From assembly GCA_034659475.1 (NCBI GenBank), contig JAYEHK010000155.1, positions 1,279 through 65,278 on the forward strand: a stretch of DNA of 64,000 nt. Reading direction: 5' to 3'. The DNA is from Bacillota bacterium. Its GTDB lineage: Bacteria; Bacillota; Syntrophomonadia; Syntrophomonadales; Syntrophomonadaceae. Positions 2,512 to 42,317 of this stretch are shown here, piece by piece. The translations under genes were made by a program, and so were the position numbers. The notes beneath the pieces are model-generated. The model searched no databases, had not been told where the DNA came from, and saw nothing but the letters and a program-made list of their open reading frames with translations. How positions within the stretch are numbered: the first letter of the stretch is position 1; the number at the start of each line of letters is the position of its first letter.

Positions 2512-3423
2512 ATGATTATTGATACACTTGGTCATATCCGAAATAATCTCTATAACCTGGGGCTGATGGAATGCCCCATCTTTCTTCTGGATGGGCCGGA
2601 ACCGGTTATCTTTGACGCAGGAGTAAGCTGCGCAGGAAACATTTATGTTGAGGCCATCCGTTCCATCCTCGGCGATCGGCAGCCATCTGTACTTTTCCTT
2701 ACGCATGCCCACTGGGACCATTGCGGAGCCGCCTCCCATCTGAAAAAAGCATTCCCGCAAATGAAAGTTGCAGCCCCACATCTGGCAGTGGACATTTTGA
2801 AACTACCCAACGCACTGGCCTTAATCAAAATGCTGAATGACGATACCACAGCCAGAATGAGTTCTAGTCTGGAATTGGATTCATCACTGCTGACAAATGA
2901 ATCCTTCTGTACCTTTGAGATAGATATTGAGCTTACGGATAATCAAATTTTGGATGTAGGAGAAGGCACGACTGTACAGGCACTAGCAACTCCAGGTCAC
3001 ACGCGGGACCACTACAGTTACTATTTACCGAAGGAAAAAATTCTGATAGCGGGAGAAGCAGGAGGGGTGTACTACGGCCCTGAAACGGTTTCCACTGAAT
3101 TTGTGTCTGATTACGATGCATATGTGGCTTCCCTTAAGCGTTTAGCTGCTCTCCCGACAGAGGTCTTTTGTCAGGGGCACTATCACCATCTGGTTGGCAC
3201 AGAAGAAATCAGCGCATTCTTCAAACGATCATTAAGCGAAACAATACATTTCAAGGAAAGAGTTTTAGAACTTCTTGATGAAGAATCCGGCTCCATAGAC
3301 CGTGTGATGGAAAGGGTGAAAACAGAAAGGTATGATGTTATCCCTGGCCTCAAGCAACCGGAAGTGCCCTATCTTTTGAATCTAAAGGCCCAGGTGACTC
3401 ATTTGGCTGGTAAGGAGAAATGA
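2512..3423 (+). CDS. MBL-fold metallo-hydrolase
   Basis: HxHxDH motif (LTHAHWDHCG), downstream TPGHT, and a GGAGGG RBS 6 nt before the ATG. Confidence 0.85.
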   Translation: MIIDTLGHIRNNLYNLGLMECPIFLLDGPEPVIFDAGVSCAGNIYVEAIRSILGDRQPSVLFLTHAHWDHCGAASHLKKAFPQMKVAAPHLAVDILKLPNALALIKMLNDDTTARMSSSLELDSSLLTNESFCTFEIDIELTDNQILDVGEGTTVQALATPGHTRDHYSYYLPKEKILIAGEAGGVYYGPETVSTEFVSDYDAYVASLKRLAALPTEVFCQGHYHHLVGTEEISAFFKRSLSETIHFKERVLELLDEESGSIDRVMERVKTERYDVIPGLKQPEVPYLLNLKAQVTHLAGKEK

Positions 3424-14429: not shown

Positions 14430-14685
14430 TTTAAGTTTCTCCTTTCGCTTATAATGAACGAATCCTTTGCTTTGGCTCTTACCCCGAAAGCGTCACCTCC
14501 AACTTTTCTCGGTCTATCGTTTATTTACTTGACCTAACAGATCGCCAGTTTGTATTATGTTAATTTATAAATCTTGCCAAAACACAACATCTGCGTGAAA
14601 TGCCGTTATTTTCGCTATGGAATGTAACATTAGCTGTTATAATGGATAATGTGTGCAGAATGACATTAGGGTGATAGGTAACAGG

Positions 14686-15405
14686 ATGAAAATTGCTATT
14701 TGCGATGATGACAAGCAGGAGCTTTGGGAAATCATTCGGCTTGTGGAGGAATATTTTAGCGCTAGCCTGACGGATGAGAAAATAGAAGTGTGCAGATTTG
14801 AAAGCAGTTTAGCACTGAACAAACAGCTTGAAGGCGGCAAGCATTTTGATGTTTTTCTTCTGGATGTCATTATGCCGACTATAAACGGCATTGCGCTTGC
14901 CGAAAAGATACGAAAAACAGATCAGGTTGCAAAAATAATTTTTTTGACTACATCGCCAGAATTTGCAGTGAAGTCTTATTCTGTAGATGCATTTCATTAT
15001 TTATTAAAGCCCATTGAAAAAGTCAAACTCTTTTCTGTTTTAGAAAAAGCCTGCAGTGATATTTGCAGCGACCTACAGCAATATATCGCTGTAAAAACAC
15101 AAAACAGTCTCACCAAGCTATTCTTCCGGGAACTAATCTATGTTGAGGTAATAGAAAAAACCGTATATTTTTATCAAAAAAGCGGGGTTACGATAAAAAG
15201 CAGCACTACGCTTTCTCAAGTTGAAGCTGTTTTACTAAAAGATAAACGTTTCATCAAGCCTCATCGCTCCTATATCGTCAACCTGGACTACATCAAGGAC
15301 CTATCACAGAAGGGCTTTACGACCACAAGCGACCTATTTATCCCTATAACAAGAAGTGCTTTCAAAGAAGTAAAACAGGTATATATCAAGCATTTATTTC
15401 ATTAG
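14686..15405 (+). CDS. LytTR-family response regulator (AgrA/VirR-like)
   Basis: Receiver domain (MKIAICDDD...DVFLLDVIMP) plus a LytTR DNA-binding domain (FIKPHRSYIVNLDYIKDL). The ORF track starts at 14653; the ATG at 14686 fits the family N-terminus. Confidence 0.9.
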   Translation: MKIAICDDDKQELWEIIRLVEEYFSASLTDEKIEVCRFESSLALNKQLEGGKHFDVFLLDVIMPTINGIALAEKIRKTDQVAKIIFLTTSPEFAVKSYSVDAFHYLLKPIEKVKLFSVLEKACSDICSDLQQYIAVKTQNSLTKLFFRELIYVEVIEKTVYFYQKSGVTIKSSTTLSQVEAVLLKDKRFIKPHRSYIVNLDYIKDLSQKGFTTTSDLFIPITRSAFKEVKQVYIKHLFH

Positions 15406-15429
15406 GAAGATTAATAAGAGGTAAAAAAC

Positions 15430-16698
15430 ATGTTGGATTATATAAGGTCTCTTCTTGCCTTTGTTTTCGCTATCAGTGTGATGTATATGCTCTTGGATTG
15501 TAAAATGAAACATAAGAGAACCCCCTATCTGTTGGGGTTTTACGTAACTGTCGTGCTAATTTGTGATGCGCTTATTTTACAAAAATGCGGGTATACATAT
15601 TTTATGGGACTATATCCCCTTCTTGTCCACTTTCCTGTATTTTTAGCATTTGTGTTTGTATCAAAGTTCAAACCCATCAAGGTATTTTTTGTTCTTTTGA
15701 CACTCGTCGCTTTAACCACGTCGTTTTCTTTGGTTGGACTTATTATTTCATATTTTTTTGACTCCAGCAGAGAAGTCGTGAACATTGTTTGCTATATCAT
15801 GTATCTACCCATAGGGTTTATTATTTACAAGTATATCCGTCCGTCATTTCTTTATATGATGCGTAACACAGATAAAGGTTGGTTAGGATTTTGCATTATA
15901 CCGCTTTCATACTCTGTGCTTATTTATTCTATCGGAATGTATAATTTGGACAAGGTGAGCATTGGACCCAATGTAAAGGATGCTGTGCTGCTCTTTATTT
16001 TGGTTTTTTCAGCTTATTTTCTGATTCTACGTTTGTTCAAACAAACCAGAGAACAGCTTACCCTGCAAAACGAACAGAATATATCACAAATGCAATTAGC
16101 CGCAGCACAGATACATTTGGAATCATTACAAGAATCACAAAAAAAAACGCTCATCTATCGCCACGATATGCGTCACCATCTGGATCTGATTAGCGCCTAT
16201 CTTACGGACAATAACCATGCAGCAGCACAAAACTATATTACAGAGGTCGAAGAAACCATTGAAGCCGCTACGGTTGAAACGTATTGCAACAATTACTCGG
16301 TTAACTTGATTCTGTCTTCGTGTATTGCGAAGGCCAGGAATGAACAAATTGCCGTTGAAACCCAAATCGATCTCCCAGAGAAGAACGCCGTAGCCAATAT
16401 GGACCTTTGCATGATTTTGGCCAATGCCATTGAAAATGGTATCAACGCATGCAAGTGTATTCCCCGTATAAACGACAGAACCTTGAAAATCGTCTGCAAA
16501 ACCAAAAACGATAAGCTCCTCATACAAATCACCAATAGCTTTGCAGGTACGGTCAGCTTTGTTAACGATATGCCGGTAAGCATGGAGGAAAATCATGGCC
16601 TGGGCACGAAAAGCATTGCAGCAGTGGCTAAGAAATACAACGGAGTGTATTCCTTCACCGCCGAAGATGGAGTCTTTACGACAAGCCTTTTCCTATAG
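15430..16698 (+). CDS. AgrC/VirS-type membrane sensor histidine kinase (GHKL ATPase, HPK10-like)
   Basis: About 6 N-terminal TM helices, an H-box (IYRHDMRHHLDLISAYL), an N-box (ILANAIENGINAC) and a G-box (NHGLGTKSI). It lies 24 nt after the LytTR regulator. Confidence 0.85.
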   Translation: MLDYIRSLLAFVFAISVMYMLLDCKMKHKRTPYLLGFYVTVVLICDALILQKCGYTYFMGLYPLLVHFPVFLAFVFVSKFKPIKVFFVLLTLVALTTSFSLVGLIISYFFDSSREVVNIVCYIMYLPIGFIIYKYIRPSFLYMMRNTDKGWLGFCIIPLSYSVLIYSIGMYNLDKVSIGPNVKDAVLLFILVFSAYFLILRLFKQTREQLTLQNEQNISQMQLAAAQIHLESLQESQKKTLIYRHDMRHHLDLISAYLTDNNHAAAQNYITEVEETIEAATVETYCNNYSVNLILSSCIAKARNEQIAVETQIDLPEKNAVANMDLCMILANAIENGINACKCIPRINDRTLKIVCKTKNDKLLIQITNSFAGTVSFVNDMPVSMEENHGLGTKSIAAVAKKYNGVYSFTAEDGVFTTSLFL

Positions 16699-16778: not shown

Positions 16779-16825
16779 TGTAAAAAGCTGCATGTTATCG
16801 CCAAAACGGCTCTTCATGCAGCTTT
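16779..16825 (-). terminator. Hairpin terminator after the oxidoreductase/CbiT-like operon
   Basis: Minus strand AAAGCTGCATG-20 nt-CATGCAGCTTT followed by TTTACATATTTT, 40 nt after the stop at 16866. Confidence 0.5.
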
Positions 16826-16865
16826 AATATATTATCTTATGTCAGCGGTATCAACCGCAGCGTGA

Positions 16866-17783
16866 TTACGATTCTTCGACACTTCTGGCAGAGATCAGCC
16901 ATGGAGCTGGGAATGGCTCCATCAAGTTTTTACTGTTAACGCGTGATACCTCTATATGGATTGCTTCCGTGCGCTCCAAACCGTTTTCCCGAAACAAAGC
17001 CGGAAGAGATGTCAGGATCTCGAAGTCCAACGTGTAGATCACAAAATCCATGGCTGGATTGATGGCCTTCAGACTCTTTATTTCACTGCCGATCCTTGGA
17101 GAACCCACAATAAACGCAACGTCAGGCACCGGCAGCTTATCCGGGATACCGGTTTCAAGAGACTCCACGATGATTACGTTGTTGAGACCAAATTTGTCAA
17201 CATTACATTTCATAGTCTCTCTATCCCTGCGGTCATATTCCACAGCAATGACACTGCCCTCAGCAGCAATCATGGCCGCCTCCACCGCGATGCTCTCCCC
17301 CGAGATGATACATATATTATCCTGATCCCTCAGATTGAGTTTATTCATTATAACAGCCCGAACTTCCCTGCACACATACTGAACAGATCCGCAGGAGAAC
17401 CGACTGTTCTCCATACCTATATGATAATTGGTTGCAGCGTTGGGATTCAGAATCAACATTGCTGCAGAAGCATTGATCCCGCGATCTATCATGTCTGATA
17501 GCTTGTCGTGCTTGATCTCTCCGGATGGATCAGAGCCCTCATTGTACCAGATATCGCAATCCCCCAGTTCCGCATTCCACATATCGTAGAATATTTCCGG
17601 ATGTCCGGCGTCCGTAAAAACCAGCACTGCACGATTGCTCATAATGGTCGGAATCAGGTTCTTATTCTTCCCTGTAATGTCCAGCATTTTCAGTTTTGCC
17701 AGATTGACCGGGGCGTTTTTTGAAAAATACTGGAGCCAGGATAAAATGACCTCATTGGTAAACATCGTCTGTTCCACAGGCAA
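16866..17783 (-). CDS. CbiE(C-terminal half)/CbiT-like protein (precorrin-6 methyltransferase fold) with a degenerate SAM motif
   Basis: Aligns by eye to CbiT (REVRAVIMNKLNL..., VIAVEYD, PDVAFIVGS, final PAPWLI). The GxGxG motif I is replaced by ICIISGESIAVEAA. The likely start is the GTG at 17777, 8 nt after AAGGAGG. It lies 63 nt after the oxidoreductase beta subunit. Confidence 0.55.
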   Translation of the reverse strand: MPVEQTMFTNEVILSWLQYFSKNAPVNLAKLKMLDITGKNKNLIPTIMSNRAVLVFTDAGHPEIFYDMWNAELGDCDIWYNEGSDPSGEIKHDKLSDMIDRGINASAAMLILNPNAATNYHIGMENSRFSCGSVQYVCREVRAVIMNKLNLRDQDNICIISGESIAVEAAMIAAEGSVIAVEYDRRDRETMKCNVDKFGLNNVIIVESLETGIPDKLPVPDVAFIVGSPRIGSEIKSLKAINPAMDFVIYTLDFEILTSLPALFRENGLERTEAIHIEVSRVNSKNLMEPFPAPWLISARSVEES

Positions 17784-17846: not shown

Positions 17847-18785
17847 CTAAGCGCCGGTGCGCTCCCGCAGACGTTCCCATTTTTGATCGACATAGCTCTG
17901 GGCTTCTTCAATCATCCACTCATTGCCCTTCTGAAACATATGGCGAAATCTGCCCTGAGGGCGGAGAAAGTCTTCCACCGGCAGCTTTTTCTTCGGTGTA
18001 TAATTCAGACGCCACACACCCTTCTCTACTTCGTAAAGGGGCCAGACGCAGGTATCCACCGCCAGCTTAATGATCTCCGCAAGCTTTTCCATGGGATAGT
18101 CCCATCCGCGAGGACATGGGGACAATACGTTCAAAAAGCAAGGTCCTTCCGTATAAATGGCTTTATGAGATTTGGTATGCAGATCCTTGAAATTGCCTAT
18201 AGGGGCAGTCTGGGCTACATAAGGAATATGATGAGCAACCAAAATCTCAGTCAGATCTTTTTTATTCTGTTTCTTGCCCTGCTGTACAGAACCTATCGGC
18301 GTTGTCGTCGTGCGAGCAAAAGGAGGCGTTGAAGATGAACGCTGGATTCCGGTATTCATGTAAGCCTCGTTGTCATAGCAGACGTAGACCATGTCATGCC
18401 CGCGCTCCATCGCGCCTGACAGGGATTGAAAACCTATATCATAGGTTCCGCCATCACCTGCAAAAGTAATGAACTTAACGTTCCCATCCACCTTGCCACG
18501 GCGTTTCAAAGCGTTGTATGCTGCTTCCACTCCGGAACAGGTAGCCGCGGAGTTTTCAAAAGCAGAATGAATGTAACTGTCCATATAGGCAGTATAAGGA
18601 TACATAAAGGTGGAGACCTCCAGACAACTGGTCGCATTCACCACCACTGCCCTGTCCTCTTCATCCAGGGCACGCAGAACCCCTGATACAACAACCCCGG
18701 CGCCACATCCTGCGCAAAGCCGATGCCCTCCGGTGAGACGTACCGGCTTTTCCACTTCCCGTTTCAGGTTATATACCGTGCTCAT
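17847..18785 (-). CDS. 2-oxoacid:ferredoxin oxidoreductase, beta (TPP-binding) subunit
   Basis: GGHRLCAGCGAGVVV and GDGGTYDIGFQSL motifs. The ATG overlaps the alpha-subunit stop (ATGA). Confidence 0.9.
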   Translation of the reverse strand: MSTVYNLKREVEKPVRLTGGHRLCAGCGAGVVVSGVLRALDEEDRAVVVNATSCLEVSTFMYPYTAYMDSYIHSAFENSAATCSGVEAAYNALKRRGKVDGNVKFITFAGDGGTYDIGFQSLSGAMERGHDMVYVCYDNEAYMNTGIQRSSSTPPFARTTTTPIGSVQQGKKQNKKDLTEILVAHHIPYVAQTAPIGNFKDLHTKSHKAIYTEGPCFLNVLSPCPRGWDYPMEKLAEIIKLAVDTCVWPLYEVEKGVWRLNYTPKKKLPVEDFLRPQGRFRHMFQKGNEWMIEEAQSYVDQKWERLRERTGA

Positions 18786-19972
18786 GCTCTCTCCTCCTTT
18801 GACCTCTGTCCCATATGGGTATATACCGGTCCTGTCTCGCCGGTTTCAGCTATATCCGCCAACCGGTCAAAGACTTTTTCAATATCCTCGGTCTTTACAT
18901 CGCGGCCGCCCAGACCGTAAACGATATTAATCAGATACGGGCGATTCTTCAGATCATACAAGGCACTGCGAGTCTCGGCAAATAACGGACCGCCATTTGC
19001 CGAAAAGCCCTCGGACTTGTCCATGACAGCTACGGCCCTAGTACCTGCCAGCACATGGGCCAGTTCCTCACCCGGGAACGGGCGGAATACTCTGATCTTC
19101 ACAAGTCCTGCCTTTACGCCATCCTCCCGCAGTTTGTCAACAGCTGCTTTGGCCGTTCCGGCACTGGATCCAATCAAAACCACTGCAAACTCGGCATCCT
19201 CCATCCGATATTCTTCAAACAGGCCATAACGCCGTCCTGAAATCTTTTCAAAATCTGCAGCTACCTCAAGTATCCGTGCCTTGGCCGCCTTCATGGCCTC
19301 GGCCTGCATAACCTTGTGTTCCATATAATAGGGACTGATGTCGTACGGTCCTACCGCCAGCGGATTTTCCTTTTTCAGCAGATAGTTTTCAGGGTGATAT
19401 TCGCCGATAAACTCACGCACTGCATCCGTCTCCAAAAGCTCGATATTCTCTACGGCATGACTGGTAATGAAACCATCCATACAGGTCATCACCGGTAAGC
19501 GTATGCTCGCAGGCTCGCCGATAGGCATGGCCATGAGAAAATTATCATAGGCCTCTTGATTATTTTCGGCATAGATTTGGATCCAACCGGTATCACGAGC
19601 TCCCATAGAATCGGAGTGGTCGTTGTTTATGTTAATGGGTCCTGAAAGGGCCCGGTTGACGCAGGCCAGTGCTATAGGCAGACGGCATGAAGCCGCCACG
19701 TACAAAAGCTCGTACATCAGTGCCAGTCCACAAGATGAAGTAGCGCTGATGGTTCTGGCTCCTGCAGCCTGCGCCGCAATGCACACAGACATTGAACTGT
19801 GTTCAGACTCCACGGTTACATATTCAGTATCTACCTCGCCGTCGGCCACATAATTAGCGAAGTATTCAGGGATTTCTGTGGAGGGAGTGATCGGGAACGC
19901 TCCCATGACATCAGGATTTATCTGCTTCATGGCATAAGCTACAGCCTCGTTGCCGGAAATGCATTTGTTCAT
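18782..19972 (-). CDS. 2-oxoacid:ferredoxin oxidoreductase, alpha subunit
   Basis: MNKCISGNEAVAYAMKQINPDV...ITPSTEI is typical of PorA/VorA. The start at 19972 overlaps the delta stop (ATGA); the ORF track start at 20017 is probably too long. Confidence 0.9.
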   Translation of the reverse strand: MNKCISGNEAVAYAMKQINPDVMGAFPITPSTEIPEYFANYVADGEVDTEYVTVESEHSSMSVCIAAQAAGARTISATSSCGLALMYELLYVAASCRLPIALACVNRALSGPININNDHSDSMGARDTGWIQIYAENNQEAYDNFLMAMPIGEPASIRLPVMTCMDGFITSHAVENIELLETDAVREFIGEYHPENYLLKKENPLAVGPYDISPYYMEHKVMQAEAMKAAKARILEVAADFEKISGRRYGLFEEYRMEDAEFAVVLIGSSAGTAKAAVDKLREDGVKAGLVKIRVFRPFPGEELAHVLAGTRAVAVMDKSEGFSANGGPLFAETRSALYDLKNRPYLINIVYGLGGRDVKTEDIEKVFDRLADIAETGETGPVYTHMGQRSKEERA

Positions 19973-20277
19973 TTTACCGCACCTCCAGTCACCATTGTAA
20001 TCGCATTGAAGGGACACACGTTCTCACAGATGCCGCAACCCTTGCAGTGCATATAGTCGAATTCCAGACGTTTCCCGTCCTTTACTGGAATGGCGCTGTC
20101 CGGGCAAAATGGAATACAAAGCATACAGTGTTTACAGGCTTCCTCGTGAAAAATGGGCGTGTTGGTCCGCCAGGCACCCGTATTAAAATCCCTTGCGGTT
20201 CCCGGTTCATATATCTCTCCGCCGGGGGTCAGATCCTGCCAGGGAGTACGTTCATTGATATCCTTTGCATGAATCAT
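19969..20277 (-). CDS. 2-oxoacid:ferredoxin oxidoreductase, delta subunit (2x[4Fe-4S] ferredoxin)
   Basis: Two CxxCxxCxxxCP motifs (CKHCMLCIPFCP; CKGCGICENVCP). Confidence 0.9.
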   Translation of the reverse strand: MIHAKDINERTPWQDLTPGGEIYEPGTARDFNTGAWRTNTPIFHEEACKHCMLCIPFCPDSAIPVKDGKRLEFDYMHCKGCGICENVCPFNAITMVTGGAVK

Positions 20278-20858
20278 CCTATCTGCACCTCCTCCATGGA
20301 TTTTTTCAGTGTTGCCATGTTCCCCTCGATAACCTGTGGCTTGTCTGCAAATTTATGTTGAAAGGATTCTTCTATATGCGCTAAAAAAGGCTCGGTTTCC
20401 AAAACGCCGCTCACCTTGACCACTGCGGCCAGCATAGGGGTATTGGGAAAGTTTCGGCCCAGAATTTCTTCCGAAATACGGCGGGCATCTATGGTGCAGA
20501 CTTTTCCCATCCATCCCCGCAGCCTGGGACGCATCTCGCTGGGAGAGCCGGTCGTGTTAATGATGATCGCACCGTCTTCTTTCAGTCCTCCGGTAACATC
20601 TACGCTGTCCAGCAGACTGTCATCTACCACAACCACATAGTCCGGATAGTATATATTGGAATGGATATTACAGCGTTTTTCACTAATGCGATTATAAGCC
20701 GTAATAGGGGCTCCCATACGTTCCGGTCCATACTCCGGAAATCCCTGCACGAATTTCCCTTCTAAGCCAGCCACATCTGCCAACAGCAGACAGGCCGTCT
20801 TGGCTCCCTGTCCACCCCGGCCATGCCAGCGAATTTCTACCATATCATTTGTTGCCAT
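20274..20858 (-). CDS. 2-oxoacid:ferredoxin oxidoreductase, gamma subunit
   Basis: EIRWHGRGGQGAKTACLLLA... is typical of PorG. GGAGGGAG RBS. The gene order gamma-delta-alpha-beta has 4-nt overlaps. Confidence 0.9.
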   Translation of the reverse strand: MATNDMVEIRWHGRGGQGAKTACLLLADVAGLEGKFVQGFPEYGPERMGAPITAYNRISEKRCNIHSNIYYPDYVVVVDDSLLDSVDVTGGLKEDGAIIINTTGSPSEMRPRLRGWMGKVCTIDARRISEEILGRNFPNTPMLAAVVKVSGVLETEPFLAHIEESFQHKFADKPQVIEGNMATLKKSMEEVQIG

Positions 20859-20887
20859 TGCTTCTCCCTCCAGTCATTATGATTCAT

Positions 20888-21130
20888 AAATAAAAAAGCT
20901 TCCGTCCCACAAAGGGACGAAAGCCTGAAAGACATTCGCTATACCACCCACTGAATACAAGCATACTATCATATGCGTTCCCTGTGACGGGGAAAACCGT
21001 CGGAGCCTACTGGATTATATCGTTCGGTCCGCAGCTCAGGAGTGATTTTCGGGTTCAAACTACTGGTACCGGGCTTGCACCACCCCCGGCTCGCTGAAAC
21101 GTTCGGCTGAAACGTACTCTCTCCGTCAAT
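20888..21130 (-). promoter_or_regulatory. T-box riboswitch leader (probable AUC/Ile specifier) with an intrinsic terminator, upstream of the oxidoreductase operon
   Basis: The minus strand shows, in order: TGACGGAGAGAGTA; CAGCGAG-CCGGG-GGTGGTGCAAG-CCCGG (AG bulge and distal loop); GAAAATCA-CTCC (specifier loop); GACGG-TTTTCC-CCGTC; ATTCAGTGGGTGGTATAGCGAA (T-box sequence, plus 20941-20962); and the terminator GCTTTCGTCCC-TTTGT-GGGACGGAAGC-TTTTTTATTT (plus ~20888-20925). Confidence 0.8.
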
Positions 21131-21435
21131 GCCTTTAAGATTTTTAAATTATAAATAACTATACCCACTTGACCGTGTTTTGTCAATCACTGTTTCTGAT
21201 TTTCAAGTAATTACAAAATCGCAAAATACAGGAGATAGCAGGTGAACCATCTCCATATCTTTACCCTGTCTTTACAGAAAAAGAAAACCTCCCCAACCGA
21301 ACTCCAAAGAGTTCAGCATATTGAAGAGGCAATGTTAATTTCTATGTAGAAATAGCCTGTACAATCACAAACTGATTTTTCCAGCTGTTTACTGTGCAAG
21401 GGAACTTCTTGACTATAATCTGTCAGTTGTTATGG

Positions 21436-21849
21436 TTAAGCAACTAAGTCCTCGTGGCCAGCTTCTTTAAGAGCTTCAGTATATAGCTTGTAGACAGGTT
21501 TTAGATTCGGCACCAGTTTCAGCATATCGGTTACAGCGCCCTGAGTTTTTATTTTCCCCTGGAAGGTGGCCATCATTAAATTGATTTTGCCTTGCCAGAA
21601 TTTGTTGAAAATATCATCGTTTTGAATTGATGTACAGTCTATCTTGATATCTGTTGGGCCGTATATAGCCTCTATTTTCCCATATAAATTCAAGGTAATG
21701 AAAGCATCCAGGTTAGGAACACTCAGTGCAACAGCTATGTTGGCACCAGACAGTTTTTTCTTCAATTCCTGATTATTTTGTACTTTGTCCATCATTATTC
21801 TAAAAACATCATAAATCTCTTCTGCATTTTTATACGCCATGTTAAACAC
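21436..21849 (-). CDS. SCP2 (sterol-carrier-like) domain protein
   Basis: 137 aa. The pattern ...FQGKIKTQGAVTDMLKLVPNLKPVY resembles the SCP2 C-terminal GKLKIxGDMxxAMKL motif. The assignment is moderate. Confidence 0.5.
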   Translation of the reverse strand: MFNMAYKNAEEIYDVFRIMMDKVQNNQELKKKLSGANIAVALSVPNLDAFITLNLYGKIEAIYGPTDIKIDCTSIQNDDIFNKFWQGKINLMMATFQGKIKTQGAVTDMLKLVPNLKPVYKLYTEALKEAGHEDLVA

Positions 21850-22249: not shown

Positions 22250-23656
22250 CTATTTATCTGAATAAAAGAATACCGTGAGATTTCCTTCGTCCGCAATCAC
22301 ACCGTATTCATATCCATGAAGCTCCAGAACGTTTTTGACGATGCTCAGTCCCAACCCGTGACCGCCCATACCGCGGTTACGGGATTTTTCGCTTCTGTAA
22401 TAGCGTTCAAACATTCGAGCGGCATCGCCCCGGGGAACATCCACGCCCGAGTTCGTAACAGACACCTTGCATCGATCTCTTTCAGCTTCAGCCATGACCG
22501 TGATTTCAGCTCCGTTGGAGGAGTATTGGATTGCATTGCTCAGAAGGTTTATCATAACTCTCTTCATTTTTTCGTAGTCGGCATTAACATTGAGTTCCGT
22601 TGTTTCCACTATCAGTGACATAGATCTGTCAATTATCTGGGCTCTGAATTTGTCGGCAGTGTTTTTGATTAAATCGGAAATATCAAAGTCTCTTTTATTT
22701 AATCCGTAATTCCCGCTTTCAAGTCTTGTAAGCTCAAGTGTATTCCGCACAAGCTCATCAAGACCGTCAACCTCATCTGAGATCGCGTTCAGATAATATT
22801 CGGCGGGCTTGCTTCCCACGCCGTCATTCAGAACTTCAATAAATCCGGAGATAATACCCAGAGGCGTTTTGAATTCGTGGGACATATCCATAAGCAGATC
22901 GCGCATTCTTTCCTCGTCGCTGGCCTTTGTCAGTGCATATTCGTCCAGCTGTTTGTTTTTGTCTTCAAGCTTTGCAATAGATTCGGAAAGATTTTTGGAA
23001 ATCATATTTATGTTGTCCGACAGCTCTTCAAGTTCGTCTCCGGTGTGAATGGATGTAGAAATTGAAAAATCCTCATTTGCAATTGCCCCGGCACTGCGGT
23101 TAAGCTGCAGCAGGGGTTTGGTGAACCAGCGCGAATAGATAAGTGACAGCACGATAATCAGCAAAATCTGCAGTGCAAAAATATAATAATAGTATCGGCT
23201 CACAAATTTAAACGGTCGTCCCAGTTCCTGAATTTCAAAAATGGTAATCGCGTTGATGTCTGTTCCGTCAAGCCTTGCTATAAGTACTGAATAATGAACG
23301 CCGGATTCCTCATCGGTAAAATCGTATTCTGTGCTGTTGCTGTACAAATTTGAATGGAGTTCATTCCTCACAGTATCAAGCTCATCTTCAATAAGTACGT
23401 TGCCTATTTCGTTAAACAGCCGCGTTGCCCGGTAACGCGAAACACCGCTGCTGCGGTTATGCCCCGTCAGAGCTTCACATGTACCGCTTATTGTCCTTGT
23501 GATGCCAATTTGCTTGTAATAGTGCTCATATATCGCCTGGGAATAATCGCTGAAATATTCATAACCTTCGCCTGCAATTTTCAAGCCGAGATAATATTCG
23601 GTGCCAGGCATTTGCATACAGTCAACAAATCCTGTATTCAAGCCATTTCTTGACAC
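22250..23656 (-). CDS. Sensor histidine kinase (HAMP-HisKA-HATPase), orphan and apparently lacking the first TM segment
   Basis: H-box MSHEFKTPLGIISG, N-box LLSNAIQYS, G-boxes GHGLGLSIV. There is a single TM before HAMP (YIFALQILLIIVLSLIY). GTG start, and no adjacent response regulator. Confidence 0.8.
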   Translation of the reverse strand: MSRNGLNTGFVDCMQMPGTEYYLGLKIAGEGYEYFSDYSQAIYEHYYKQIGITRTISGTCEALTGHNRSSGVSRYRATRLFNEIGNVLIEDELDTVRNELHSNLYSNSTEYDFTDEESGVHYSVLIARLDGTDINAITIFEIQELGRPFKFVSRYYYYIFALQILLIIVLSLIYSRWFTKPLLQLNRSAGAIANEDFSISTSIHTGDELEELSDNINMISKNLSESIAKLEDKNKQLDEYALTKASDEERMRDLLMDMSHEFKTPLGIISGFIEVLNDGVGSKPAEYYLNAISDEVDGLDELVRNTLELTRLESGNYGLNKRDFDISDLIKNTADKFRAQIIDRSMSLIVETTELNVNADYEKMKRVMINLLSNAIQYSSNGAEITVMAEAERDRCKVSVTNSGVDVPRGDAARMFERYYRSEKSRNRGMGGHGLGLSIVKNVLELHGYEYGVIADEGNLTVFFYSDK

Positions 23657-40136: not shown

Positions 40137-40870
40137 CTAGTCATCAAACAAAAAGTAGGGTCGAAGGCAGGCGCGGTAAAGTATTAGACCTTGTGAGGCC
40201 ATGCTGTTTCTCCCCTTTCGGGTGAGTGTCCCCCTCAAGCGGGTCATCTTCCCGTTTCCAGACCCCGCCACCTCAAACGCAGCATGCGGTTTTCCCGCAC
40301 TACGCTTTCCTAATCGCTTCGTGTCAAGGTTTATGTGTCCTAACGTGCTGGGAAGGCTTTCGGGGTTTTCTGGGGATACCACTTCCCAGTCTTGCTTTTC
40401 ACTCTTTTGAAGTCGAATCCTAGAAAGCTAAAGCTTTCGTCTTTTGTCAGATCTACCACTCGCGTCTTGTCTGTATTCACTTCTACCTCTAGCTTCATTA
40501 GTTCTTCGATTAGCCTTTTATATACCTGTCCTAATAGTTTTTCCTACCGCGGGTGCCCATCCACCAGTACTACCATATCATCTGCAAATCTTGCATACAT
40601 GCACATATAGCCCCCAGAAACGCCAGCTTGGTTCAGACTTCGCCTTGATATATATCTTTTCCCTCAATTCTTGCAGTCCTATGGACGGCTTTGTCATTAG
40701 ACTCCAGTAGTTCAGTTTCCTTCCCCACTGCTAACCAAGCTACAGGGTTTCTACTTCTTTCCCTGGCAGGACTGTCTCCTACTGAACATACCAGCCTTTA
40801 CTGGACATACGAACATCCCAGTGTAACACAAAACATGCAAACGTGATTGTTCTCCTCTTTGCACAAGATC
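40137..40870 (-). pseudogene. Decayed group II intron-type reverse transcriptase (internally deleted, frameshifted, in-frame stops)
   Basis: Minus-strand translation shows RT-0-like LQELREKIYIKAKSEPSWRFWGLYV. It is joined out of frame to RFADDMVVLVDGHPR* (YADD box, plus ~40562-40588), then EKLLGQVYKRLIEELMKLEVEVNTDKTRVVDLTKDESFSFLGFDF. RT domains 1-4 and the maturase/X domain are absent. Confidence 0.6.
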
Positions 40871-41966: not shown

Positions 41967-42317
41967 TGGTGGAGGCGAGGGGAATCGAACCCCTGTCCGA
42001 AAGATAGACCAGCCCAGTATCTCCGAGCGCAGTCCGTGATTTAATTTCACCCTTTGGACGTCCACGGACGAACTTCCTGAGGCTATCCCCGATTAAATTC
42101 CCCTTTTAGCCCCTCGAGAAAAAAGGCTAAAGGGTACCCTCGCTATGTGACGCCCTGCACTAAACCGCGAGGTTATCTAGCCGGACGAGCAGCCTTAGGC
42201 TGCTAGTGCAAAATTATCTTCTGCAGTTATATTTGTTTTTCACCTTTTTAACGAGCTGGCGACAACTCGGCTCGCTGCTCGACCCACCTTATCCCCCGTC
42301 GAAACCAGTACGCCCCC
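41967..42317 (-). ncRNA. ssrA: tmRNA (ssrA)
   Basis: 5' GGGGGCGTACTGGTTTCGACGGGGG... and 3' ...GGGGTTCGATTCCCCTCGCCTCCACCA (tRNA-Ala-like ends). Internal tag reading frame ...GCAGAAGATAATTTTGCACTAGCAGCCTAA = AEDNFALAA* (plus ~42195-42224). It lies immediately downstream of smpB. Confidence 0.9.

Follow-up and report, generated by a model that had tools for sequence, protein, structure and literature searches.

A probable isoleucine-specific T-box leader upstream of a pyruvate synthase-like 2-oxoacid:ferredoxin oxidoreductase operon in Syntrophomonadaceae and other anaerobes

The DNA analyzed here, referred to below as the window, is a 64-kb stretch (64,000 nucleotides) of contig JAYEHK010000155.1 from a Bacillota bacterium of the Syntrophomonadaceae. 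Its minus strand carries a complete T-box leader at 20886-21138, from Stem I through the terminator U tract, directly upstream of the gamma, delta, alpha, and beta genes of a 2-oxoacid:ferredoxin oxidoreductase (OFOR). We propose that this leader is probably a transcription-attenuating T-box that answers to tRNA-Ile(GAU) and drives an OFOR resembling pyruvate synthase (POR) for the synthesis of isoleucine. An initial annotation of the locus had listed the T-box hallmarks in order on the minus strand and had placed the leader in front of the OFOR genes. All of these hallmarks were found where it had put them, within a full-length match to the Rfam T-box model RF00230 and with covariation among relatives, and the subunits were identified with NCBIfam and Pfam models. 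The features of the unit are as follows.

21158-21186, minus strand: sigma-70-type promoter, TTGACA-17 nt-TATAGT, 11/12 consensus matches, best site in the scanned region (pattern scan)
21034-21132, minus strand: Stem I, with kink-turn (K-turn) base, specifier loop, middle helix, AG bulge, and distal stem-loop (covariation and high-posterior model alignment)
21120-21115, minus strand: AGAGUA box (direct reading)
21095-21091, minus strand: AG bulge, AGCGA (aligned to the RF00230 consensus)
21090-21068, minus strand: distal stem-loop, GCCGGG-GGUGGUGCAAG-CCCGGU; AGCGA and the GGUGGUGCAAG loop align to the RF00230 consensus
21044-21046, minus strand: specifier codon AUC (Ile) in the loop context GAA-A-AUC-A (model register and 70/70 leaders)
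21001-21031, minus strand: Stem II, with GAA...AGUA loop motifs (covariation)
20978-20999, minus strand: Stem IIA/B pseudoknot element, a small CGG/CCG hairpin overlapping a UUCC/GGAA pairing (covariation)
20961-20976, minus strand: Stem III, a GCAUAU/UAUGC hairpin (covariation)
20914-20949, minus strand: T-box sequence GGGUGGUAUAGCG and antiterminator, with the UGGU bulge at 20946-20943 (invariant GGUGGU, pairing)
20886-20926, minus strand: intrinsic terminator, hairpin at 20926-20896 followed by a U tract (pattern scan; 13-pair stem, then TTTTATTTAT)
20274-20858, minus strand: OFOR gamma, 194 amino acids (aa) (TIGR02175 PorC_KorC, 210.9 bits; PF01558)
19969-20277, minus strand: OFOR delta, 102 aa, two [4Fe-4S] clusters (TIGR02179, 103.8 bits; Fer4 domains)
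18782-19972, minus strand: OFOR alpha, 396 aa from the ATG at 19972 (PorA_Arch, 485 bits, cutoff 550; POR_N and PFOR_II; PDB 9bt4_B, 331 bits)
about 19580-19603, minus strand: PININNDH loop, residues 127-134 of the 411-aa alpha open reading frame (ORF) (alignment)
17847-18785, minus strand: OFOR beta, thiamine pyrophosphate binding, 312 aa (PorB, 358.6 bits, cutoff 405; PF02775; PDB 9bt4_C, 264 bits)
16866-17777, minus strand: orf5, 303 aa, CbiT fold with a shortened glycine-rich S-adenosylmethionine (SAM)-binding loop (linkage across loci, AlphaFold model)
16782-16822, minus strand: probable operon terminator, hairpin GCUGCAUG-20 nt-CAUGCAGC followed by UUUUU (direct reading)

The gamma, delta, alpha, and beta genes overlap or abut, and the TIGR02175 and TIGR02179 matches lie above the cutoffs of those models. 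A 69-nt gap with a good ribosome-binding site separates beta from orf5, so that the four-subunit operon of the initial annotation stands as far as the OFOR is concerned but grows to a controlled unit of five genes. The hairpin after orf5 has a loop of more than 8 nt and was for that reason missed by the pattern scan. Upstream, between an SCP2-domain gene (21436-21849) and the T-box promoter, lies a terminator-like hairpin, GGAGATGG...CTATCTCC with a T-rich tail (21231-21254, minus strand), which gives the T-box operon the appearance of an independent transcription unit.

Within the leader, the two strands of the K-turn base and specifier region read UGACGGAG ... CUCCUGAGC, and the loop segment that carries the specifier reads GAAAAUCA. 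The specifier loop has the AGUA...GAA S-turn and displays its codon on the 3' side. The segment following Stem III reads GGGUGGUAUAGCGAA. The terminator is a G+C-rich hairpin of 12 to 13 bp followed by UUUUUUAUUUAU, and its U tract ends about 28 nt before the gamma ATG at 20858, close to the roughly 30 nt estimated earlier. Its 5' arm is also the 3' strand of the antiterminator, which makes the two helices mutually exclusive. The middle of Stem I holds an internal loop (21102-21104 and 21061-21064, minus strand) with a conserved (G)AA on its 5' strand and AGUA on its 3' strand, in which A34 and T75 are invariant; it looks like a second S-turn/loop-E motif, turned the opposite way from the one in the specifier loop.

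In a permissive regional scan, RF00230 matched the window at 20910-21138 with 87.3 bits (E = 1.6e-19), with model positions 1-219 aligned end to end. A default scan of the whole window at the curated gathering cutoff, which for RF00230 is 93 bits and is an annotation threshold and no biological feature, returned no T-box because the leader scores below that value. It returned only a tmRNA gene (41967-42317, minus strand; 181.8 bits; ARAGORN tag peptide AEDNFALAA) and, about 1.2 kb from it, a match to group II intron domains D1-D4 (40653-40784, minus strand; RF02003, 81.1 bits). Single-sequence minimum free energy folding of the leader gave z = -1.58 and a noncanonical fold and was uninformative.

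The alpha subunit retrieved 80 related loci, which were searched for leaders using nhmmer with the window leader. Most belong to Syntrophomonadaceae, Desulfitobacteriaceae, Peptococcaceae, and their relatives, and others to metagenome-assembled genomes (MAGs) of Oscillospiraceae, Ruminiclostridium, Intestinibacillus, and Anaerovoracaceae. In about 70 of the 80 loci, the orthologous gamma gene is immediately preceded by a homologous leader. No two of the 70 leaders are the same, and their identity to that of the window ranges from 64 to 93%. Rfam finds no T-box in any of eight loci that lack a leader: in three the upstream region holds deletion remnants, in four it is unrelated sequence, and in one (L016) nothing but the 3' end of the terminator is left, at the start of the contig. 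The remnants, L043 (~3030-3135), L044 (~3068-3153), and L046 (~3059-3154), are decayed copies in which large internal deletions have removed Stem I and Stem II and the terminator part has been kept; L043 reads GGGCGGC where intact leaders have GGGUGGU. These three copies sit in MAGs labelled Firmicutes UBA5774, Desulfosudis, and Proteobacteria.

The 70-leader alignment was used to assess secondary structure in two ways. Given no prior information, RNAalifold recovered the Stem I helices, Stem II, part of IIB, Stem III, and the terminator, with compensatory changes at 26 of 45 pairs. We also counted pairing in a hand-written canonical T-box structure that includes the IIA/B pseudoknot and the antiterminator. 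In this structure 92.8% of cells form standard pairs, compared to 36-52% when the 3' partners are slid by one to three columns, and 25 pairs change on both sides; none of 500 shuffles reached the observed values. Stem I helices 1-5 are paired in 76-100% of cells, with both-side changes in 14 of 22 pairs, and the distal stem is 98.8% paired. Stem II (helix 6) is paired in 96.9% of cells with compensatory changes in four of its six pairs, Stem IIA (helix 7) is 99% paired and almost invariant, and Stem IIB (helix 8) is 72.9% paired, one of its four pairs being mostly unpaired. In Stem III (helix 9; 98.6% paired), one pair changes from AU in 54 leaders to GC in 11. The antiterminator (helices 10-11) is 97-100% paired and its closing pair is G-C in 50 leaders, A-U in 13, and G-U in 7, while the terminator is paired in 97% of cells with covariation at 7 of 12 pairs. 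The 3' base of the antiterminator closing pair also covaries with its partner in the terminator, as is expected when two mutually exclusive helices share a strand. A42, G43, G45, A46, G57, and T58 of the AG bulge and distal loop are invariant, as is the GGUGGU of the T-box bulge. These patterns give good support to the view that the leader is a selectively maintained T-box and not a relic, with a response to tRNA as the prediction.

The RF00230 register places AUC (plus-strand 21044-21046) at the specifier position with high posterior probability. Across the leaders, the triplet in the motif GAA-N-NNN-N-helix is AUC in 69 by pattern and in the seventieth (L055) by eye, which bears out the AUC reading proposed in the initial annotation and passes its test that orthologous leaders should share the specifier. 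The neighboring bases vary: among the pattern-matched leaders, AUC is preceded by A in 52 cases, by U in 8, by G in 7, and by C in 2, and it is followed by A in 55, by C in 13, and by U in 1. The frames AAU, AAA, and NAU were rejected because all four nucleotides occur at the position before AUC. Bacterial tRNA-Ile has A73 as its discriminator base, and tRNA-Ser has G73; by analogy, the invariant U after UGG would pair with A73 of tRNA-Ile and not with G73 of tRNA-Ser. On the strength of the model register, the invariance of AUC between variable flanks, and this match between UGGU and the discriminator, the leader is almost certainly to be read as a T-box(Ile) switch with AUC as its specifier.

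The initial annotation had also pointed out a 10-nt direct repeat in Stem I. The repeat is real: ACGTTTCAGC occurs at 21115-21106 and again at 21102-21093 (minus strand), where each copy supplies the 5' strand of one of two consecutive Stem I helices and precedes an AG-rich element. Exact copies are limited to 14 of the 70 leaders, all of them close relatives, and distant leaders match at 1-5 of 10 positions; about 2.6% of leader shuffles contain a repeat of such length. It was therefore set aside as a functional feature, being lineage specific, decaying with distance, and matched in length by shuffled sequence.

orf5 adjoins the OFOR genes in nearly every locus with enough sequence, and in the closer relatives it lies downstream of beta with 70-91% identity. 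Clustering of all ORFs from the 80 loci revealed no conserved neighbor beyond the five genes. Comparison of the window with Syntrophomonas wolfei Goettingen, Ca. Formimonas warabiya, Pelotomaculum propionicicum, and others (L081, L008, L023, L073, L004) showed that promoter, T-box, and five genes make up one colinear 4.3-kb block with 84.6-87.5% nucleotide identity across genomes and unrelated flanks. The -35 hexamer (about 21187-21220) marks one edge of the homology and the orf5 stop (about 16843-16882) the other, so that the unit is a discrete, mobile-looking cassette. Such identity between different families, the noncoding leader included, points to horizontal spread of the whole module. 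In the window the cassette is flanked by signaling genes, a LytTR response regulator and GHKL kinase (14653-16698, plus strand) on one side and a HAMP/HisKA histidine kinase (22250-23656, minus strand) on the other, none of which is conserved next to the cassette in other genomes. The upstream SCP2 gene was considered as a clue to the substrate and discarded, as it is not conserved at other loci. The window holds no OFOR paralog.

Databases annotate orf5 as "precorrin-6B methylase." An AlphaFold (AF2) model built with 36 homologs (pLDDT 86, pTM 0.81) superposes over residues ~120-303 on CbiT (PDB 3e05) with a Foldseek E value of 4e-13, a TM-score of 0.85 normalized by target length, and 24% identity. 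The SAM loop is two residues shorter than that of CbiT (IIS-G-ESIAVEAA versus DIGAGSAS), and SGESIAVE is invariant in the family. The protein scores 44.9 bits against TIGR02469 (CbiT), for which the cutoff is 78.3, has no Pfam match, and carries an extra N-terminal domain of ~115 aa. No cobalamin genes lie next to orf5 in the loci examined. The shortened loop, the subthreshold TIGR02469 score, the lack of cobalamin context, and the linkage to OFOR genes led us to reject assignment as CbiT. The structure search returned a generic CbiT fold and was dropped as a functional clue. Going by the model, orf5 may be an accessory subunit or a divergent methyltransferase.

All four OFOR subunits score best to models of archaeal-type pyruvate synthase, and the POR models exceed those of the 2-ketoisovalerate enzyme (VOR) for alpha (485 versus 345 bits) and beta (359 versus 298 bits). 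No substrate-level NCBIfam equivalog cutoff is reached (PorA_Arch 485 against 550, PorB 359 against 405, PorC 185 against 270, PorD 101 against 120). With the scores below these cutoffs and the VOR models lower still, the enzyme was filed as neither POR nor VOR. Among solved structures, the four-subunit pyruvate:ferredoxin oxidoreductase (PFOR) 9bt4 is the closest to both alpha and beta, and oxalate oxidoreductase comes next. The alpha alignment shows that the PITP threonine and the conserved arginine, equivalent to D. africanus Thr31 and Arg114, are kept. The loop beside this arginine reads PININNDH, compared to PINIWNDH in 9bt4 and LSIFGDH in D. africanus, so that Asn replaces the aromatic residue of true PFORs. 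This Asn may be a determinant of substrate size that enlarges the pocket. From these affinities, the enzyme appears to resemble four-subunit pyruvate synthases more than 2-ketoisovalerate enzymes.

A T-box switches genes on when the tRNA it names is uncharged, and a gene product that is induced at low Ile-tRNA charging should therefore raise the isoleucine supply. For a POR-like enzyme under Ile-only control, 2-oxobutyrate synthase is the best fit because 2-oxobutyrate is the only isoleucine-specific precursor and the closest analog of pyruvate. The carriers include degraders of fatty acids and propionate as well as gut anaerobes, so propionyl-CoA would presumably be at hand. S. wolfei, a carrier of the cassette, uses fatty acids only and has no catabolic ferredoxin-reducing metabolism of oxoacids (PMC5626996); without a catabolic use, the OFOR there is expected to act as a synthase. 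In anaerobes, one established way to isoleucine runs through the ferredoxin-dependent carboxylation of propionyl-CoA to 2-ketobutyrate (PMC7476758, which cites Buchanan 1969, Monticello 1984, and Eikmanns 1983). We therefore consider it likely that the enzyme has a biosynthetic, carboxylating role and put forward 2-oxobutyrate more tentatively, at rather less than an even chance, as its product. The initial annotation had likewise argued for biosynthesis, with reductive carboxylation of 2-methylbutyryl-CoA or another branched acyl-CoA as one possibility. The physiology of S. wolfei favors the biosynthetic half of that proposal; as for the substrate, the enzyme is POR-like and not VOR-like, so conversion of propionyl-CoA to 2-oxobutyrate is at least as likely as the 2-methylbutyryl-CoA reaction.

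The proposed switch would operate as follows. Transcription would start from the promoter at 21186-21158, and the nascent leader would fold into Stem I, Stem II, the Stem IIA/B pseudoknot, and Stem III. In the default state, the hairpin at 20926-20896 and its U tract would terminate the transcript ~28 nt short of the first gene. Under isoleucine shortage, uncharged tRNA-Ile (anticodon GAU) would pair with the AUC specifier, its elbow would dock on the platform formed by the AG bulge and distal loop, and its free ACCA end would pair with the UGGU bulge and stabilize the antiterminator. RNA polymerase would then read on into the gamma, delta, alpha, and beta OFOR genes and the CbiT-fold gene. 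The enzyme would work in the synthase direction, converting propionyl-CoA, CO2, and reduced ferredoxin to 2-oxobutyrate or, alternatively, 2-methylbutyryl-CoA to 2-oxo-3-methylvalerate. Going one step further, and with slightly less than even confidence, we suggest that the 4.3-kb block is a self-contained, horizontally spreading module for isoleucine supply, in which a dedicated ferredoxin-dependent 2-oxobutyrate (or 2-oxo-3-methylvalerate) synthase has a degenerate, methyltransferase-like fifth component as an obligatory partner and which is headed by a clade of T-boxes that Rfam-based annotation systematically misses.

Several observations weigh against these proposals. The Rfam T-box model, suggested as a check in the initial annotation, gave a full-length match with an agreeing AUC register that nonetheless falls six bits short of the gathering cutoff; seven relatives (L008, L023, L062, L065, L071, L073, and L075) score 43.8-88.8 bits (E = 2e-6 to 6e-18), all below 93, and all scored leaders of the clade are consequently missed by default Rfam annotation. 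In 14 of the 70 leaders the codon is followed by a pyrimidine (C in 13, U in 1) and not by the usual purine. The +1 frame, UCN, is always a serine codon, and conservation alone leaves it standing. The 64-kb window contains no tRNA gene, and the match of anticodon GAU and discriminator A73 draws on what is general for bacterial tRNA-Ile. The equivalog scores place none of the subunits with a known substrate, and no acyl-CoA ligase, ilv gene, or aminotransferase is conserved beside the cassette in the 80 loci as a pointer to one. In Ruminiclostridium and Oscillospiraceae loci, orf5 lies upstream of the T-box and thus outside its control.

The scores below cutoff in every member tested would suit a leader that is a decayed or nonfunctional T-box, and a serine reading (UCN) would make the link to isoleucine spurious; the +1 triplets UCA, UCC, and UCU all code for serine, and truly decayed copies do exist (L043, L044, L046). 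Those copies look different, however, with their large internal deletions and GGGCGGC in place of GGGUGGU, and a relic would not keep invariant functional sites or helices that covary across leaders down to 64% identity. The serine frame was rejected on three grounds: the model register assigns the codon position to AUC and not to UCA at high posterior probability, a UCN codon would abut the helix with no unpaired base in between, and the invariant UGGU suits A73 and not G73. We therefore regard a relic or a serine switch as very improbable. The remaining alternatives accept the isoleucine switch and differ on the reaction. In one, the enzyme carboxylates 2-methylbutyryl-CoA, or branched acyl-CoAs generally, and so salvages environmental 2-methylbutyrate into isoleucine and bypasses ilv. 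An Ile specifier and no other in 70 leaders fits this route, and the record titles of the carriers name digesters, rumen, and gut, all of which contain 2-methylbutyrate. Rumen bacteria and Clostridium sporogenes are known to use this route, which Robinson and Allison in 1969 and Monticello in 1984 are said to have described, and the Asn that stands for an aromatic residue beside the conserved arginine could enlarge the pocket. S. wolfei subsp. methylbutyratica carries the cassette (L073) and is reported to metabolize 2-methylbutyrate (PMC4777749). On the other hand, all four subunits favor POR over VOR models, the closest solved structure is a PFOR, no gene for acyl-CoA activation is linked, and an enzyme for branched chains would normally serve valine and leucine too, for which the 70 leaders contain no specifier. 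The branched-chain route is plausible, though less probable than the propionyl-CoA reaction and more probable than the last alternative, an ordinary pyruvate synthase paralog that would boost pyruvate from acetyl-CoA in isoleucine shortage because isoleucine synthesis consumes it.

The latter has in its favor that the best model and structure matches are pyruvate enzymes, that the PITP threonine and the arginine are kept, and that fatty-acid-degrading syntrophs must make pyruvate from acetyl-CoA, as we gather from PMC5626996. Pyruvate is also needed for valine, leucine, alanine, and gluconeogenesis, however, which makes Ile-only control in 70/70 leaders hard to rationalize. Scores below the PorA, PorB, PorC, and PorD equivalog cutoffs, the PININNDH loop signature peculiar to the clade, and the dedicated fifth gene likewise speak against a simple paralog, which we hold to be quite improbable. 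Our preferred reading remains an isoleucine T-box on a POR-like synthase that supplies an isoleucine precursor.

A T-box specifier is a built-in functional label, in that it names the amino acid whose shortage activates transcription. In this case the label places within isoleucine supply an oxidoreductase that would otherwise be unassignable and that is variously annotated as a pyruvate or a 2-ketoisovalerate enzyme. If this reading is correct, the cassette provides genes for a ferredoxin-dependent reductive route from short-chain acyl-CoAs to isoleucine and a first gene-level identity for an activity known biochemically since the 1960s. It would also explain isoleucine supply in fatty-acid- and propionate-degrading syntrophs and in many gut or rumen Clostridia, and it would put right the way in which the enzyme and the "precorrin-6B methylase" are both widely annotated. 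Regulon reconstructions that rely on the Rfam gathering cutoff would miss this T-box clade.

We found no link between a T-box and an OFOR in the full-text literature, T-box surveys included, though an earlier mention in a survey table is possible. Compared with canonical RF00230 T-boxes, such as the Ile AUC leaders of ileS and ilv-leu in Bacillota, the leader has the same order of elements from the K-turn to the competing antiterminator and terminator, including the specifier-loop S-turn and the UGGN bulge, and it shares the AUC specifier and the logic of induction by uncharged tRNA. It differs in its target, an OFOR and a CbiT-fold gene in place of a synthetase, a classical ilv gene, or a transporter, in its T-box sequence (GGUGGUAUAGCG versus the usual GGUGGUACCGCG), and in the conserved GAA/AGUA internal loop in the middle of Stem I. 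The enzyme has the subunit set, domains, PITP threonine, and arginine of the four-subunit PFOR/pyruvate synthase 9bt4, from which it is set apart by scores below the equivalog cutoffs, PININNDH instead of PINIWNDH, an extra partner gene, and predicted gating by tRNA-Ile. With the VORs of Pyrococcus, Thermococcus, and Methanothermobacter it shares the OFOR superfamily and four subunits, but VOR models score clearly below POR for alpha and beta, and no Val or Leu specifier accompanies the cassette. VOR in methanogens has been proposed to act anabolically on branched acyl-CoAs. orf5 shares the CbiT type of class I methyltransferase fold with CbiT and the C-terminal domain of CobL (precorrin-6B C15-methyltransferase, 3e05), although it is 24% identical, has a SAM loop two residues shorter and a ~115-aa N-terminal extension, and is linked to an OFOR and not to cobalamin genes. 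The reaction and role we propose are those of the propionyl-CoA to 2-oxobutyrate activity known biochemically from anaerobes, which is approached here from genes and a regulatory signal alone; to our knowledge, ferredoxin-dependent 2-oxobutyrate synthase activity has not so far been tied to any dedicated gene set. Judged by its RNA anatomy, the element is a canonical transcriptional T-box with a common Ile specifier that is unusual in its OFOR target, in belonging to a subthreshold clade, and in being packaged with its operon in a mobile-looking cassette.

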